From a virus (taxonomy: Duplodnaviria; Heunggongvirae; Uroviricota; Caudoviricetes), in the IMG/VR virus record IMGVR_UViG_2529292912_000006, positions 1-37,252 of that record: DNA of 37,252 bases. The stretch is one strand, 5' to 3'. Made by a program: the position numbers and the translations under genes. The notes beneath the pieces are model-generated. The model saw only the letters and a list, made by a program, of their open reading frames with translations. It ran no database searches and had not been told where the DNA came from. Positions 7,624 through 15,315 of this stretch are shown here, piece after piece. Every line of letters starts with the position of its first letter. The stretch's first letter is position 1.

Positions 7624-8328
7624 TTACAATCGGTTGTATTTTATAGATTCGTGAATCAACGCCTTGCCCATTACATAAAGCTGATCCTGCGATTTTTCAT
7701 CGATGTACCATTTCTCATAGGCGGGGTTATCCGAAAGAACGGCTAGCTTGTCACCTTGCATTTGAAGACGTTTGACATGAAAAGTCTTACCGTAAACGAA
7801 AGAGTAAACTCCATCAGTCTGGAAGTGACGAACAGAAATGTCGACAAACAGTCGGTCTCCGGAAACGAGTGTAGGGGACATACTATCGCCATTTACAGTC
7901 ATAACCTTAATATCATTCTGAGAACGGTTGCCGAAAAGAGAACGGGCATGTTCTGTTGTGAACTCAATGGCGTAGAGCACATCAACATAGTCTGAAAGCA
8001 TATAGGTCCCAGGTCCTGCGCTAACGCTAAGATCCAAAACTTCTATCCTGTATACATCGGGTTTCGTTGGATTGGGGATGCTTGCCATTTCCTTACATCC
8101 TTCTCTCTCGCCAACACCATATTCTAAATATGAAGCTGATACCCCCAGAGCCAATGCAAGTTTATTCATGACAGAGGCACGAGGCTTCGCAGCGCCGATT
8201 GTGTATCGCCGCGCCATTTCATATGTAACGCCCACAAGACTTTTGAGTTGGGTGACAGAAATTCCCTTGTTTGTCATTAGCTCGTTTAGTCTCTTGGCGA
8301 AATCTGGATACTTCTGTTCTTCTACCAT
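7624..8328 (-). CDS. CI-type prophage repressor (HTH plus S24 LexA-like peptidase domain)
   Basis: HTH (…NELMTNKGISVTQLKSLVGVT…), Ala-Gly cleavage site, GDSM serine motif and VKRL lysine motif. Start set at ATG 8328 because the track start (8385) lies between the two operator repeats; 8364 is also possible. Confidence 0.85.
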   Translation of the reverse strand: MVEEQKYPDFAKRLNELMTNKGISVTQLKSLVGVTYEMARRYTIGAAKPRASVMNKLALALGVSASYLEYGVGEREGCKEMASIPNPTKPDVYRIEVLDLSVSAGPGTYMLSDYVDVLYAIEFTTEHARSLFGNRSQNDIKVMTVNGDSMSPTLVSGDRLFVDISVRHFQTDGVYSFVYGKTFHVKRLQMQGDKLAVLSDNPAYEKWYIDEKSQDQLYVMGKALIHESIKYNRL

Positions 8329-8366
8329 AGGTAGAAGATTACTCACATCACATACACTAGTCATTT

Positions 8367-8426
8367 CTATTTTAAGTAGTTGCATTTTGCTATTTTAAGT
8401 AGCATCATCCCTCTGAATTTCAGAGG
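8367..8426. promoter_or_regulatory. Putative OR operator pair plus palindrome over the cro SD
   Basis: Two identical 13-bp imperfect palindromes CTATTTTAAGTAG at 8367-8379 and 8390-8402 (23 bp apart); 17-bp perfect palindrome CCTCTGAA-T-TTCAGAGG at 8410-8426. Confidence 0.5.
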
Positions 8427-9311: not shown

Positions 9312-9913
9312 ACAGTTTAACGGCAAATAACCGTTTGTCGCAACAGCTGGTGGTCAGCGTCGCTGAACACCTGTTGTTACGGCATGAATGCAGATTACCA
9401 AATCACCTGGCTGTAAGTAACCACAGAGAACTTTACCTGACTGTGGGGGGCGAGTTGTGCAGGAACTTAACCGCTGGTTTCGTGACGGAAGAGGGCTTTA
9501 TGTCCATGTTATTCGTTGGGAGCCAGAAACACAGCGCGTTATCTATCTTCGCAAAGACTACCCGCATGAGTGCTTTAGTCCTTTGTGGAAATTCAGGCGT
9601 GATTTTGTTGAGTGTGAAGGACCACCAGCACATTGATTCTGCCATTCCGGGACGTTACACTGTTCAGGCACCTTATAAAGCGGGTGCCGGGATTGGCGTC
9701 CTGAAATTGATTACTGAGCATAACCGCGCTCATGCGGTTTTTTCGTGTCATGAGCATTGCTACGCCCAAATTATGGTGGGGCGTACAGGGCCGACTTCGG
9801 TCGGGCCGGGTTCGGTAGTCTCCGGTAACGCCAACCCTGTACGTCTCACCACCTCTGTGATTGGCGTCCCATGTGGTGAGTTTTCTGAAAAACTGACTAC
9901 CGGGGCTGTCACC
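9308..9913 (+). other. Open frame upstream of the Rha domain with uncertain coding status (possible frameshifted or overlapping gene)
   Basis: ATGA-coupled start at 9308; translation is low-complexity and atypical; an alternative frame (9457-9636, GTG start) encodes a more protein-like 59-aa peptide; G6 run at 9445-9450 sits at the frame junction. Confidence 0.3.
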
Positions 9914-10471: not shown

Positions 10472-10692
10472 TCCGGAATATTTTCAAACGATTTACCAAT
10501 CAGACTTTCCGTTGTCCTCGCCCCGGTCAGTGGTACACCACGCCTGCAGGGCATGTTCTACGTGTTAGCCTGGTTGACCGTGAATGTCAGAAGGTGATTT
10601 GTGAACCGCTGGGCCGTAATTACCGCGTCAGTATGCCGCTTATAGCCTTTCGCTCCGGAAAAAACATGAAGCATCTCGGAGGTGCGGCATGA
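10468..10692 (+). CDS. Hypothetical small protein (74 aa)
   Basis: ATGA overlap with Rha stop and ATGA overlap into the replication gene. Confidence 0.4.
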   Translation: MIRNIFKRFTNQTFRCPRPGQWYTTPAGHVLRVSLVDRECQKVICEPLGRNYRVSMPLIAFRSGKNMKHLGGAA

Positions 10693-11681
10693 GCCTGTTA
10701 ATGACATCCCAGCCCATTGTGATAAATCGTGATCTTGCATGCCGTATTGGTCTGAATGAGGCAATTGTGTTGCAGCAGCTTCATTACTGGCTGAATGAAA
10801 CGAATTCAGGCACTGAGCATGGCGGAATTCGCTGGGTTTATAACACGACAGAACAGTGGCTGGAGCAGTTTCCGTTCTGGTCAGAGTCCACTCTGAAACG
10901 CACATTTGCAAGCCTGAAATCACTTGGGGTTTTGCGTCGCGAGCAACTCAATAAATCGAAGCGTGACATGACCAACTTCTACACGATCAACTATGAAAGT
11001 GAGCTTTTAGAAGAGGTCAAAGTGAACGAATCAATCAGGTCAAAATGCACTTCTCCATCGGGTCAAAGTGACCTGATGGATGGGCGCAAAATGACACGAT
11101 CCATTGGTTCAAAACGACACGCTGTCATCGGGTCAAAATGGCCCAATGATCTTACAGAGAATACAACAGAGATTACTACAGAGAATAAAACCTCTTCTCG
11201 TCCGGACGCTTCGCAACCGGACACGCAAACGGCTGAACAGGAGTTTTTAACTCGCCATCCTGATGCGGTTGTATTCAGCCCTAAAAAGCGCCAGTGGGGA
11301 ACGCAGGATGATTTGACCTGCGCACAGTGGCTCTGGAAAAAAATCATCGCCCTGTACGAGCAGGCCGCCGAATGTGACGGCGAGGTGGTTCGTCCCAAAG
11401 AACCGAACTGGACAGCCTGGGCAAACGAAATTCGCCTGATGTGTGTGCAGGATGGTCGTACCCACAAACAAATCTGCGAGATGTACAGCCGCGTCAGCCG
11501 CGATCCGTTCTGGTGCCGTAACGTGCTCAGCCCGTCGAAGTTGCGGGAAAAATGGGATGAGCTTTCCCTGCGCTTATCGCCGTCCGTCAGCACGCACACA
11601 GAAAAACGTGAAGACCCGTACTTCAAAGCCAGTTACGACAACGTGGACTACAGCCAGATCCCGGCAGGATTCAGGGGGTGA
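10689..11681 (+). CDS. Phage replication initiator (lambda O-like replisome organiser)
   Basis: N-terminal region typical of phage O-like replication proteins (…LACRIGLNEAIVLQQLHYWLNE…); iteron array lies inside the gene. Confidence 0.7.
   Translation: MSLLMTSQPIVINRDLACRIGLNEAIVLQQLHYWLNETNSGTEHGGIRWVYNTTEQWLEQFPFWSESTLKRTFASLKSLGVLRREQLNKSKRDMTNFYTINYESELLEEVKVNESIRSKCTSPSGQSDLMDGRKMTRSIGSKRHAVIGSKWPNDLTENTTEITTENKTSSRPDASQPDTQTAEQEFLTRHPDAVVFSPKKRQWGTQDDLTCAQWLWKKIIALYEQAAECDGEVVRPKEPNWTAWANEIRLMCVQDGRTHKQICEMYSRVSRDPFWCRNVLSPSKLREKWDELSLRLSPSVSTHTEKREDPYFKASYDNVDYSQIPAGFRG
11015..11140. repeat. Origin-like iteron array inside the replication gene
   Basis: Five to six copies of GGTCAAA(A/G)TG-type repeat at 11015, 11038, 11061, 11084 (degenerate), 11106 (degenerate) and 11131, about 23 bp apart. 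Confidence 0.55.
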
Positions 11682-11683
11682 TC

Positions 11684-11776
11684 ATGAGTCTGTTAAATGA
11701 CGTTCAGAAATTCATTGAAGCCCATCCGGGCTGTACTTCCGGAGACATTGCGGATGCTTTTTACGTGGGGGCTTAA
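11684..11776 (+). CDS. Small coupled ORF (30 aa)
   Basis: Begins 3 nt after the replication gene stop and ends in a TAATG overlap with the methyltransferase start. Confidence 0.3.
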   Translation: MSLLNDVQKFIEAHPGCTSGDIADAFYVGA

Positions 11777-12429
11777 TGAATAATAAATATTGCCAGGCGC
11801 TGGTAGAACTGCGGAACAAACCAGCCCATGAACTGAAGGAAGTGGGCGATCAGTGGCGCACGCCGGACAACATTTTCTGGGGAATTAACACCCTGTTTGG
11901 CCCGTTTGTTCTGGATCTGTTTACTGACGGTGATAACGCCAAATGTGCCGCGTATTACACGGCGGAAGATAACGCGCTGGCGCATGACTGGTCAGAACGT
12001 CTTGCGGAGCTTAAAGGTGCTGCCTTTGGTAATCCCCCATACAGCCGCGCCAGTCAGCATGAGGGGCAATACATCACCGGCATGCGTTACATCATGAAGC
12101 ATGCCAGTGCCATGCGTGATAAAGGCGGGCGCTATGTTTTCCTGATCAAAGCTGCCACCAGCGAAGTGTGGTGGCCGGAAGATGCAGATCATATTGCTTT
12201 TATTCGCGGGCGTATTGGTTTTGAACTGCCTGTCTGGTTTATCCCGAAAGACGAGAAGCAGGTGCCGACAGGCGCTTTCTTCGCTGGTGCTATTGCTGTT
12301 TTCGACAAGACCTGGAAGGGACCGGCAATCAGCTACATCGGGCGCGATGAACTTGAGGCATGTGGTGAGGCGTTTCTGGCGCAGGTTCGCCAGCAGGCGG
12401 AAAAACTGGTCAGGGAGATGGCGGCATGA
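11776..12429 (+). CDS. Phage N6-adenine DNA methyltransferase (Dam-like)
   Basis: Catalytic NPPY motif (…FGNPPYSR…) in a 217-aa protein in the nin-like region. Confidence 0.8.
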   Translation: MNNKYCQALVELRNKPAHELKEVGDQWRTPDNIFWGINTLFGPFVLDLFTDGDNAKCAAYYTAEDNALAHDWSERLAELKGAAFGNPPYSRASQHEGQYITGMRYIMKHASAMRDKGGRYVFLIKAATSEVWWPEDADHIAFIRGRIGFELPVWFIPKDEKQVPTGAFFAGAIAVFDKTWKGPAISYIGRDELEACGEAFLAQVRQQAEKLVREMAA

Positions 12430-12752
12430 CGACGTTAACTCAATGCCAGCAGCAGGTGCTGGATATGCTGATTTCTTATCAGAAAGAGCGTGGCTTTCCG
12501 CCAACCAATCAGGAGGTGGCAACCATGCTGGGATACCGTTCAGTGAATGCAGCGGTAGAGCATCTTCGCGCACTGGAGAAAAAAGGCGTCATCACGATAA
12601 AGCGTGGCGTGGCCCGGGGGATAACGCTTCATACCGCGGTGAAGGACGACGACAGCGAGGCGGTCGGGATTATCCGCTCACTGCTTGCCGGTGAGGAAAA
12701 CGCCAGGCTGCGTGCAGCCCACTGGTTACATGAGAGGGGCCTGAAAGTATGA
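12426..12752 (+). CDS. LexA N-terminal DNA-binding-domain protein lacking the S24 peptidase domain
   Basis: Residues 3-70 align by eye with the LexA winged-helix domain (LTxxQQxVxDxI…GxPPTxxExAxxLGxRSxNAAxEHLxALxKKGVIxI…RGIxL); protein ends at 108 aa with no Ser/Lys dyad region. Confidence 0.75.
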   Translation: MTTLTQCQQQVLDMLISYQKERGFPPTNQEVATMLGYRSVNAAVEHLRALEKKGVITIKRGVARGITLHTAVKDDDSEAVGIIRSLLAGEENARLRAAHWLHERGLKV

Positions 12753-13138
12753 AGCTGATTCTGCCTTTTCCGCCCAGCGTGAACACGTACTGGCGACACC
12801 CCAACAAAGGGGCGTTTGCTGGTAAGAGCCTGATAAGCGCGGCGGGGCGAAAATTCCAGAGCGCGGCGTGCGCAGCAATAGTTGAGCAGTTACGTCGTCT
12901 GCCGAAACCAACGTCGGCACCTGCTGCAGTGGAGATCGTGTTGTTTCCACCGGATAACCGGATCCGCGATCTGGACAACTATAACAAGGCGCTGTTTGAC
13001 GCCCTGACCCACGCGGGGGTGTGGGAAGACGACAGTCAGGTGAAAAGAATGCTGGTGGAGTGGGGACCGGTTATCCCGGAAGGGAAGGTCGAGATCACTA
13101 TCAGTAAGTACGAGAAAACGGCGGGTGCAGCCGCCTGA
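12749..13138 (+). CDS. rusA: RusA-family Holliday junction resolvase
   Basis: 129 aa; characteristic …FPPSVNTYWRH… N-terminus and …DLDNYNKALFDALT… acidic catalytic region. Confidence 0.85.
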   Translation: MKLILPFPPSVNTYWRHPNKGAFAGKSLISAAGRKFQSAACAAIVEQLRRLPKPTSAPAAVEIVLFPPDNRIRDLDNYNKALFDALTHAGVWEDDSQVKRMLVEWGPVIPEGKVEITISKYEKTAGAAA

Positions 13139-13157
13139 TCAAGAGGAGAAACGAAGT

Positions 13158-13955
13158 ATGAATAATCTGATGGTCATTGATGGTATTGAAGTTCGTCGTG
13201 ATGCTTATGGTCGTTACAGCCTGAACGATCTTCACAGGGCTGCCGGTTCTCTGGATAAGCATAAGCCTGCATTCTGGCTCCGCAATGAGCAAACTGAACG
13301 TTTAATAAGCGAGTTGCAGATTTGCAACTCGGTCAATATAGAGCCAGTTAACGTTATTCGTGGCGGAAATAACCAGGGGACGTATGTCTGCAAAGAACTG
13401 GTGTATGCCTATGCAATGTGGATCAGCCCGTCATTCCATCTGAAGGTGATCCGTACTTTCGATATGGTAACCAGCGCACCGGAAAAATTATCCGGGCAGG
13501 CTGCTGACAAGATGCAGGCTGGCGTGATTCTGCTGGACTTTATGCGCCGGGAGTTAAACCTGTCTAACTCATCTGTGCTTGGGGCCTGTCAGAAACTCCA
13601 GGAGGCTGTTGGCTTACCGAATCTGGCACCGCGCTATGCCATTGATGCTCCTGCTGACGCGCCTGATGGCTCAAGTCGCCCGACACTGTCACTGAGTGCA
13701 CTGCTGAAACAGTATGGTATCTGCCTGACGGCTAATCAGGCATATCACCAGATGGCGAAGCTGGGGATCGTTGAACAACGCGAACGATACAGCCGTACCG
13801 CGATTAACAACATCAAAAAATTCTGGTCGCTGACGGCGAAAGGCTGCATGTTCGGCAAGAACATCACCAGTCCTGCAAATCCGCGCGAGACGCAACCGCA
13901 TTTCTTCGAATCCCGATTCCCTGAACTGTTAAAGCTGCTCGATACCGTTCATTGA
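13158..13955 (+). CDS. KilA-N domain protein (antirepressor-like)
   Basis: SD GAGGAG before ATG 13158; N-terminal KilA-N-like region (…YSLNDLHRAAG…KPAFWLRNEQTERLISEL…). Confidence 0.65.
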   Translation: MNNLMVIDGIEVRRDAYGRYSLNDLHRAAGSLDKHKPAFWLRNEQTERLISELQICNSVNIEPVNVIRGGNNQGTYVCKELVYAYAMWISPSFHLKVIRTFDMVTSAPEKLSGQAADKMQAGVILLDFMRRELNLSNSSVLGACQKLQEAVGLPNLAPRYAIDAPADAPDGSSRPTLSLSALLKQYGICLTANQAYHQMAKLGIVEQRERYSRTAINNIKKFWSLTAKGCMFGKNITSPANPRETQPHFFESRFPELLKLLDTVH

Positions 13956-13956
13956 G

Positions 13957-14952
13957 GTGACCGTGAGAGCACTACTGACCCCTGAAATTGCCCCGCGTAT
14001 GGGGATCGTATTGTTCAGGCCCGGTTCAGAGCTGATGCCCCTGTTTATGCAGGGGCGTGTCCTGCTGGAGCCTGAGCCGGAACGTTATTCATCTTTCGCC
14101 AGTGGTGCCGTTCCGGCGGCATCACAACCGCTGGCGGATGATCCTGTCGTTCGGGCCGTGTTTCGCAATGAGGCAGTGATCCGTCGTGCTGGTGGCGTGG
14201 AATGCCTTGAAAGCTGGTTACTTCGTGAAAAGGGCTGTCAGTGGCCTCATTCCGACTGGCACAGCGAGAACATGACCACTATGCGACACGCGCCGGGCGC
14301 AATCCGTCTGTGCTGGCACTGCGATAACCAGCTGCGTGATCAGTTCACGGAACGGCTGGAGTCAATGGCAACGGATAACTGTGCCCGCTGGGTGTTGTCT
14401 GTCGTGCGTCGGGATCTCGGTTTTGATGACAGTCACGTTGTGACAATGCCGGAACTGTGCTGGTGGCTGGTTCGTAATGACCTGGCTGATGCCTTACCGG
14501 AAAGTGCAGCCCGTAAGGCACTGAGATTACCGAAGCCTGTTGTGCCGTCTGTTACCCGGGAAAGTGACCTTGTGCCTTCGGTTCCTGCCACCAGCATCAT
14601 CCAGGATAAAGCGAAAAAAGTGCTGGCGCTGGAAGTGGATCCGGAGTCGCCGGAGTCTTTTATGTTACGCCCAAAACGTCGCCGCTGGGTTAATGAAAAG
14701 TACACGCGCTGGGTTAAGACGCAGCCGTGTGCATGTTGTGGAAAGCCTGCTGATGATCCCCACCACCTGATAGGCCACGGTCAGGGTGGAATGGCTACAA
14801 AAGCGCATGATCTCTTTGTGTTGCCTTTGTGCAGAAAGCATCACGACGAGCTGCATGCGGATACCGTGGCATTTGAAGAGAAGTATGGCTCCCAGCTGGA
14901 GCTGATATTTCGTTTTATCGATCGTGCGCTGGCAATTGGCGTGCTGGCCTGA
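13957..14952 (+). CDS. DUF968-family phage protein (YdfU-like)
   Basis: C-terminal Cys/His cluster (…CACCGKPADDPHHLIGHGQGGMATKAHDLFVLPLCRKHHDELH…); start codon uncertain (GTG 13957, GTG 13963 or ATG 13999). Confidence 0.65.
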   Translation: MTVRALLTPEIAPRMGIVLFRPGSELMPLFMQGRVLLEPEPERYSSFASGAVPAASQPLADDPVVRAVFRNEAVIRRAGGVECLESWLLREKGCQWPHSDWHSENMTTMRHAPGAIRLCWHCDNQLRDQFTERLESMATDNCARWVLSVVRRDLGFDDSHVVTMPELCWWLVRNDLADALPESAARKALRLPKPVVPSVTRESDLVPSVPATSIIQDKAKKVLALEVDPESPESFMLRPKRRRWVNEKYTRWVKTQPCACCGKPADDPHHLIGHGQGGMATKAHDLFVLPLCRKHHDELHADTVAFEEKYGSQLELIFRFIDRALAIGVLA

Positions 14953-14970
14953 TTTTTGTGGGGTAAGTTG

Positions 14971-15315
14971 ATGCGTGATATGTATGAAGTATTGGACCGC
15001 TGGGGAGCATGGGCTGCAGCAGACAACAGTGGTGTGGACTGGCAGCCGGTAGCAGCAGGCTTCAAGGGGCTTTTACCTCATGGCAAAAAGTCACGGATTC
15101 AGTGTGATGATGACGAAGGCATTATGATAGACAGTTGTGTGGCTCGGTTGAGAAAGTATAAACCAGAGGAATATGAGCTCATCATAGCCCACTTTGTTAT
15201 TGGTATCTCATTACGCACTATTGCCAAAAGGAGAAGGTGCTCTGATGGCACTATTAGGAAGGAGTTGCAAACCGCAATCGGTTTTATAGAGGGGGTTGTA
15301 AGTATACTTGTGTAA
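14971..15315 (+). CDS. Late-gene antiterminator Q (QuuD-like)
   Basis: Small protein beginning MRDMYEVLDRWGAWAA… with a Cys-rich motif, at the expected place (end of nin region); ATG 14971 preferred over the TTG start of the track ORF. Confidence 0.75.
   Translation: MRDMYEVLDRWGAWAAADNSGVDWQPVAAGFKGLLPHGKKSRIQCDDDEGIMIDSCVARLRKYKPEEYELIIAHFVIGISLRTIAKRRRCSDGTIRKELQTAIGFIEGVVSILV

Follow-up and report, generated by a model that had tools for sequence, protein, structure and literature searches.

The question raised by this locus is what a phage does with the DNA-binding domain of the SOS repressor LexA when the autoprotease domain that normally follows it is missing. The stretch of DNA that was analysed (the window) comprises 37,252 nucleotides, positions 1 to 37,252 of the IMG/VR record IMGVR_UViG_2529292912_000006, and is a lambdoid prophage of the SfV/SfII/mEp460 type. 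The gene concerned encodes a protein of 108 amino acids (aa) and is called here the LexA N-terminal-domain (LexA-NTD) gene. The reading that we prefer, at a probability of roughly 0.4, is that its product is a RecA-insensitive, LexA-derived DNA-binding protein that is dimerised by its tail, is made after induction and binds LexA-like, not necessarily canonical, operators outside its own gene block.

That the protein corresponds to the N-terminal winged-helix domain of LexA had been proposed in the original prediction from the sequence by eye, and this was borne out by domain and fold matches that are far beyond chance. The Pfam profile LexA_DNA_bind (PF01726) aligned with residues 1-65 over its positions 1-65 of 65 (E=2.9e-19; 69 bits at a cutoff of 23.7), and a phmmer search of the PDB retrieved Escherichia coli LexA's DNA-binding domain (1lea, E=7e-16), with residues 2-69 aligned ungapped. 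An AlphaFold2 (AF2) model calculated from a family alignment of 35 sequences had a mean predicted local distance difference test score (pLDDT) of 83 and was superimposed on DNA-bound LexA (3jso_B) with a root-mean-square deviation (rmsd) of 0.9 A over 68 columns at 50% identity. The profile of PHROG 362 was matched over its full length, residues 1-108 corresponding to profile positions 1-106 of 106 (E=1.4e-59). It had also been claimed that the protein stops before any S24 peptidase domain, and this was found to be correct as well. Pfam gave no match to Peptidase_S24 (PF00717) in the 108-aa protein, which ends at residue 108 and is followed by the RusA open reading frame (ORF). The TIGR00498 lexA equivalog model scored 70.8 bits, under its cutoff of 110.95, and was aligned over positions 1-91 of 203 only. 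This confirms that the 108-aa protein is a LexA-type winged-helix domain without the S24 autoprotease, and it is therefore not capable of self-cleavage in response to RecA. Annotation of the gene as a LexA DNA-binding domain is already present in many public phage records.

In LexA the base contacts of helix III are made by Ser39, Asn41, Ala42, Glu44 and Glu45 (PMC3091678). Four of the five (Ser39, Asn41, Ala42 and Glu45) are kept in the 108-aa protein and Glu44 is replaced by Val. Pro40 of LexA is also replaced by Val, and the wing residues Arg64-Gly65-Ile66 are retained. Throughout the 35-sequence alignment Q8, S39, N41, K53, R64, G65 and I66 were invariant, and the DNA-binding scaffold persists to identities of about 40%; in the distant member P0220 N41 is a Tyr. 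A comparison of helix-III statistics between full-length and short homologues was confounded by mis-called Dam-LexA fusions and by fragments, and was not used.

The description of the protein as a LexA that stops before the protease is accurate as far as the protease is concerned, but it overlooks that the C-terminal 35 residues are a conserved, structured module. In the AF2 model this part folds into a two-helix hairpin. Its residues L86, L87, A93, A97, L101, E103 and R104 are invariant among the close family; down to about 40% identity A97 remains invariant and A93 and L101 are conserved in at least 90%, and the pattern common to distant relatives is roughly EAxxLLRALxxxxxxARxRAxxxLxxxG. The conservation of the tail matches that of the DNA-binding domain. 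No homologue of the tail was detected in Pfam or by a profile search of the PDB. A resemblance to HEAT/PBS-type repeats was considered and rejected, as Pfam returned only sub-threshold NIL-domain matches and the PDB profile search nothing. The first tail helix aligns with the hinge and cleavage-site region of LexA (SLLAGEE versus RVAAGEP), Ala88-Gly89 being aligned to Ala84-Gly85 of LexA. In the model Ala88 ends the helix formed by residues 75-88 and Gly89 lies in the following turn, no catalytic domain is present in cis, and the Ala-Gly pair is not kept in distant family members. To judge from these alignments, the family looks like a lexA gene cut just behind the cleavage region, which has itself been remodelled.

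LexA dimerises via its C-terminal domain (PMC3091678), and its free N-terminal domain has a 10-1000-fold lower affinity for DNA, although it still represses enough to need removal by ClpXP for full SOS induction (PMC11442139). Because the dimerising domain is missing from the phage protein and a free N-terminal domain binds more weakly, the most economical reading is that the hairpin probably stands in for the LexA C-terminal domain as the dimerisation module. Other standalone LexA-type families include proteins of 161-222 aa with tandem LexA_DNA_bind domains, seen as two Pfam-matched stretches in each (P0132, P0152, P0156, P0160 and P0164). They are apparently pseudo-dimers in which one chain carries the LexA winged helix twice, a solution other than the helical tail, and the duplication fits a need for two domains.

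The position of the gene agrees with what had been expected of it, namely a nin-like region, an ATGA coupling to a Dam-type methyltransferase gene and expression with the early genes. Its ATG overlaps the stop codon of Dam (GGCGGCATGACG), and the RusA ATG in turn shares bases with its TGA (GTATGAAG), in the gene order Dam, LexA-NTD, RusA, KilA-N, DUF968, Q, between the replication gene and the antiterminator gene (Table 1). Neither a promoter-like site nor a strong terminator was found on the + strand between the pR region and Q, and the LexA-NTD gene is therefore an early-operon gene. Since the window encodes a separate repressor with HTH_3 and Peptidase_S24 domains, the LexA-NTD gene is not the immunity repressor.

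The extent of DNA that is inherited together with the gene was mapped by comparing the window with SfII, Stx2a_1447, Ayreon and cdtI. In these phages the LexA-NTD gene goes with three or more types of immunity region, and the Q and late regions vary as well; the sole DNA common to all of them is window 12426-14948 (~2.5 kb). In Ayreon the homology begins exactly at the LexA-NTD start codon and stops at the DUF968 stop codon. As this shared block is all coding, with gaps between genes of about 20 bp or less, no private intergenic operator travels with the gene. Dam is dispensable, as in Ayreon a PerC-like gene directly abuts the LexA-NTD gene. RusA and the methyltransferase are missing in the Klebsiella loci, and a DUF968 gene was found downstream in every subfamily locus examined.

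Table 1. Features of the LexA-NTD gene, of its product and of the surrounding part of the window.
Feature	Position	Strand	Evidence or remark
LexA-NTD gene	12426..12752	+	108 aa; ORF list, PF01726, phrog_362
LexA-type winged helix-turn-helix, residues 1-68	12426..12629	+	helices 6-22, 28-35 and 40-52, strands 56-58 and 66-68; AF2 model, fit to 3jso_B
Recognition helix, residues 38-50	12537..12575	+	RSVNAAVEHLRAL versus RSPNAAEEHLKAL in E. coli LexA; alignments
Two-helix hairpin tail, residues 75-103	12648..12734	+	helices 75-88 and 93-103; AF2 pLDDT about 86; may serve in dimerisation or in binding of a partner
CI-type immunity repressor (HTH_3 + Peptidase_S24)	7624..8385	-	Pfam
Replication gene	10689-11681		upstream of the LexA-NTD gene
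Dam-type N6-adenine methyltransferase	11776..12429	+	PF05869, E=9.6e-46
RusA Holliday-junction resolvase	12749..13138	+	PF05866, E=6.2e-15
KilA-N domain protein	13125..13955	+	PF04383, E=2.4e-26; within the co-inherited block
DUF968 / HNHc_6 putative HNH nuclease	13957..14952	+	PF06147, E=4.5e-81; end of the co-inherited block
Antiterminator Q	14956..15315	+	PF06530, E=1.4e-44; distal end of the early operon

Directly 5' of the LexA-NTD gene lies a slot for a methyltransferase, which can come from any of three Pfam families unrelated to each other (PF05869 Dam, PF02086 D12 and a PF00145+PF02086 fusion) and is absent in Ayreon (loci L006-L011 and L013; window 11776-12429). The slot appears to be a hot-spot of exchange, flanked by PerC and LexA-NTD genes that are conserved. 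SfII and most relatives carry a PerC-family (YfdN-like) gene between the replication gene and dam. Comparison of window 11684-11776 with L001:6063-6456 revealed a deletion of ~395 bp by which most of this gene has gone; its remnant is a 30-codon ORF with a stop codon that overlaps the dam ATG. The PADLOC defence models gave no meaningful match.

The gene is abundant. At a minimum of 95% identity it was found in 2233 of the 5426 complete E. coli genomes (41%), under the PGAP name 'LexA family transcriptional regulator'. Phage records that contain it number 50, among them those of Stx2a- and Stx2c-converting phages, cdtI, SfII, SfIV, SfV, mEp460 and Ayreon. An exhaustive HMMER search added full-length relatives at 41-52% identity, and by means of a profile search the family was located in Cronobacter, Klebsiella, Enterobacter, Salmonella, Atlantibacter, Kosakonia and Citrobacter. 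Over its full length, tail included, the protein is thus conserved in Escherichia and seven further genera, at identities between about 40% and 98%. The label of PHROG 362 is 'transcriptional repressor', and depositors have named the gene 'LexA DNA binding domain protein', 'LexA-like protein' or 'repressor, lexA family'. In a genomics paper on Stx phages it is listed without comment as pham 237 (pfam01726). Wrong names have also been propagated, for the gene itself ('SOS-response repressor and protease LexA', 'RecA-mediated autopeptidases' and 'Rrf2 family') as well as for the adjacent Dam gene ('phosphoadenosine phosphosulfate reductase'). Searches of the literature yielded catalogue entries only, and no functional study or experimental data on the enterobacterial family.

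How the protein might act can be put together as follows. It would be produced only during transcription of the rightward early operon, following infection or the induction of the prophage. The hairpin would dimerise it, allowing two winged helices to read a palindromic operator, the half-site of which would be LexA-like (CTGT-related) and altered where residue 44 reads. Insensitive to activated RecA, the dimer would stay on its sites while the host LexA is being destroyed. Its targets would be expected elsewhere than in its own block. SOS-type promoters, either the host's or those of co-resident elements, are the most likely ones, or else boxes that some carriers possess, and the likely effect would be repression. 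In favour of this reading are the LexA fold and the missing protease, the conserved scaffold with four of the five base contacts (of which gp6 of phage GIL01, a binder of a different site, keeps only Ser39), the conservation of the tail, the tandem domains of other standalone families, the residual repression by a free N-terminal domain and the all-coding shared block.

A number of observations weigh against this reading, of which dimerisation by the tail, and with it the spacing of the half-sites, is a putative element. Position 44 was never Glu among the aligned short, tail-bearing family members, and the motif of the contact region varies between subfamilies, being NAAVE in E. coli, NTIAG in Citrobacter, NAATD in Cronobacter, NAVLL in Klebsiella and NAAAE or NTVFI in Salmonella. 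The hosts of these divergent subfamilies use one and the same SOS box. At the level of the alignments, such variation in hosts with a common box looks like a diversification of specificity. A precedent is gp6 of the Bacillus phage GIL01, described as a 'truncated LexA homologue' from the host repressor: although 44% identical to the host LexA, it binds a quite different site, GaCACAnnTGTGaC and not the host SOS box, and activates transcription from the late promoter P3 (PMC6182141).

The operator searches belong to the same side of the balance. An approximate SOS position weight matrix (PWM), built from E. coli boxes, reached a best score of 8.4 bits in the window, a value that was equalled or exceeded in 94% of shuffled windows, whereas real boxes score at least 13.7 bits. 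The pattern CTGT-N8-ACAG with at most one mismatch was not enriched in the window (18 found, 12.7 expected). The suggestion that the protein regulates phage genes carrying LexA-like boxes consequently found no support for the window. An unbiased search for spaced palindromes, in the window and in 6 kb on each side of the gene in five subfamilies, gave no recurrent operator candidate either, and neither the region from Q to the holin gene nor any other yielded a candidate palindrome. Together with the all-coding nature of the block, the lack of a recurrent palindrome makes it likely that the target lies in the host, in co-resident elements or at carrier-specific sites.

Two kinds of site were encountered in these searches and discarded. 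The sole exact CTGT-N8-ACAG of the window (9411-9426, CTGTAAGTAACCACAG) lies ~100 nt into an Ash/Rha antirepressor-like gene, and three further carriers have it too (L012:5776, L013:6733 and L014:6109). It is probably not a LexA site, because it scores 7.9 bits only and the Ash/Rha gene itself is 85-88% identical between the carriers that share it. The only recurrent palindrome, the 22-bp TCCGCT-N10-AGCGGA, is present in four copies in the Klebsiella loci (L002: 2010, 3271, 3313 and 5190; the same in L003-L005). They have common flanks and bracket reverse-strand moron cassettes, beside a truncated integrase-like ORF and an AAA_15/DUF4435 pair. As they lie inside longer repeats flanking the moron cassettes they were rejected as operators, and they look like cassette-boundary repeats.

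SOS boxes were found in relatives. In Klebsiella prophages a 130-aa homologue is encoded in a packed same-strand string (dinI, 96-aa ORF, LexA-NTD, 67-aa ORF, DUF968, 200-aa ORF), and a near-consensus SOS box, TACTGTTTATTTATACAGTA, is situated about 20 bp upstream of dinI (L002-L005:5385-5404). On this arrangement the Klebsiella homologue is probably itself under SOS control. The SfII-type cI gene contains a near-perfect SOS box of 27 bits, TACTGTATATAAAAACAGTA on the coding strand, in the linker between the helix-turn-helix and S24 domains (L001:3566-3585 in SfII; L012:4546-4565 in Stx2a_1447). The box is identical in these two phages although the flanking codons differ, and has the same sequence as the E. 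coli umuDC operator. The cI of the window is of another type, without the box. An SfII-type cI and the LexA-NTD gene occur together in all 13 complete phage records with that cI (13/13). This co-occurrence and the dinI arrangement in Klebsiella are circumstantial support for the preferred reading, but the cI and LexA-NTD loci lie only about 4 kb from each other and no more than two lineages are represented, so that linkage suffices to explain the cI association. A third, strong SOS-box-like site, TACTGTAAAAATA[TA][CA]CAGT[TG] (22-24 bits), begins 8-9 nt inside an N6_N4-type DNA methylase gene between Q and the lysis/stx genes of Stx2, cdtI and Ayreon phages (L012:14072-14091, L013:13597-13616 and L014:13972-13991; weaker at L007:11136 and L009:10317). 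An association of the LexA-NTD gene with this box, which would have been to the credit of the preferred reading, was rejected, as carriers account for only 4 of the 22 records with the element.

A stricter form of SOS involvement would be that of a non-cleavable mimic, which binds canonical CTGT-N8-ACAG across the host regulon and shuts SOS off during lytic growth. The closeness to the LexA N-terminal domain (~50% identity, 0.9 A rmsd), the four retained contacts and the missing protease speak for such a mimic, as does the residual repression exerted by the free LexA domain (PMC11442139). The dinI gene with its SOS box in Klebsiella and the box in the SfII-type cI point the same way. The occupancy of SOS boxes that the original prediction envisaged is in keeping with four of the five contacts. 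In the aligned members of the short family, however, Glu44 is absent throughout, and the residues at 42-45 vary among subfamilies whose hosts share one box. Moreover, the N8 spacing is set by the dimer of the LexA C-terminal domain, which the phage protein lacks, there is no SOS box in the window, and gp6 shows that specificity can change. A strict mimic is therefore considered unlikely.

Alternatively, the protein may be a phage transcription factor in the manner of gp6, with a non-SOS phage operator of its own through which it switches a phage promoter on or off, for instance that of late, moron or conversion genes. Besides the GIL01 example itself, the label of PHROG 362 favours this, and the recognition helix diversifies among subfamilies as it does in phage regulators. 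Against it, the gene joins unrelated immunity and late modules, its co-inherited segment (12426-14948) leaves no intergenic space, the search of the window and of the 6 kb on either side in the five subfamilies turned up no palindrome that was recurrent or conserved, and the recognition helix is far nearer to that of LexA than the helix of gp6 is. A gp6-like role is likewise considered unlikely.

A role other than in transcription would be that of an accessory DNA-binding protein, which would direct RusA, KilA-N, DUF968 or the methyltransferase to replicating phage DNA or control what they do there. The invariant linkage and translational coupling with RusA, the DUF968 gene downstream at every locus examined (including those of Klebsiella without RusA and methyltransferase) and the three unrelated Pfam families of methyltransferase in the 5' slot could be taken in this sense. 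Yet such synteny is ordinary for a nin region, the methyltransferase can be dispensed with in Ayreon and RusA in Klebsiella, and the conserved residues are those by which LexA reads bases. To our knowledge there is no precedent for a LexA domain as a subunit of an enzyme. We regard an accessory role as less likely still. A decaying remnant of a captured lexA without present function, which the resemblance to a truncated LexA and the homology through the hinge and cleavage-site region might suggest, is effectively excluded by the conservation of the full length and tail across genera, the intact state of the gene in 41% of E. coli genomes and its translational coupling in an operon.

To return to the preferred reading of a tail-dimerised, RecA-insensitive protein with LexA-like operators outside its block, it can be extended to a damage-proof surrogate of LexA that is dimerised by the hairpin and re-occupies the SOS-type operators vacated by the host LexA after prophage induction. 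We consider this extension speculative and rather unlikely. If it were true, the protein would silence host SOS functions as well as LexA-controlled rivals, such as the antirepressors of other prophages, colicins and dinI-type genes. In SfII-type phages, binding to the strong box inside cI would block renewed synthesis of the repressor and so commit the cell to lysis. With the gene carried by Stx2-converting phages and by 41% of E. coli genomes, a widespread phage layer over SOS control would result. More generally, if SOS-type operators are bound, induced prophages would reshape the very SOS response that induced them, which bears on the induction of Shiga-toxin phages, on competition between prophages and on SOS-dependent mutagenesis. 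If the protein has an operator of its own instead, it would be one more phage regulator of a known type. The gene is abundant and well annotated, and no function has been reported for it in the literature searched; it is a reasonable target for experiments rather than a surprise.

The object is thus an annotated and abundant one, and its kind of protein has already been published in the form of GIL01 gp6. What the present analysis adds to it is the conserved hairpin tail, the fact that Glu44 has been lost throughout the family while the contacts have diversified, the all-coding block that is inherited with the gene and the lack of SOS boxes in the window.

Among known systems, E. coli LexA (TIGR00498; 1lea, 3jso) shares with the phage protein the winged helix, at ~50% identity, and a homology that runs through the hinge and cleavage region (model positions 1-91). 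In contrast to LexA, the phage protein has no S24 peptidase/dimerisation domain and neither Ser119 nor Lys156. After the hinge it carries a two-helix hairpin where LexA has its beta-rich C-terminal domain, and it is encoded in an early operon, whereas lexA is an autoregulated chromosomal gene. The N-terminal fragment released by autocleavage of LexA (residues 1-84) has the same domain content. The C-terminus of this fragment ends in VAA, which is a signal for ClpX. Because a structured tail takes the place of the exposed new C-terminus, the phage protein is likely to differ from the fragment in stability and oligomeric state.

The gp6 protein of GIL01 is likewise a phage-encoded LexA DNA-binding domain without a protease, located among early genes. 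It differs in its length of 66 aa, ending with the winged helix and having no tail, and BLASTP gave no pairwise alignment between gp6 and the window protein at E up to 100. Helix III of gp6 (SHKTAHRY) keeps only Ser39, and its critical Lys38 occupies the position of LexA Asn41, which is Asn41 in the window protein. Furthermore, gp6 stems from a tectivirus of Gram-positive hosts and is an activator by experiment, whereas the window protein is known from sequence and model. A structure search also revealed standalone LexA DNA-binding domains in tectiviruses, in a mycobacteriophage and in uncultured Caudovirales. Closest are the PHROG 362 members SfII_44, SfV orf42, mEp460, Stx2a_1447_18 and cdtI orf48, which are the same gene at 96-99% nucleotide identity. 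They occupy the same slot, following Dam or PerC and preceding RusA, and no substantive difference sets the window apart from them: its PerC-family gene is deleted and its immunity region is unlike that of SfII.

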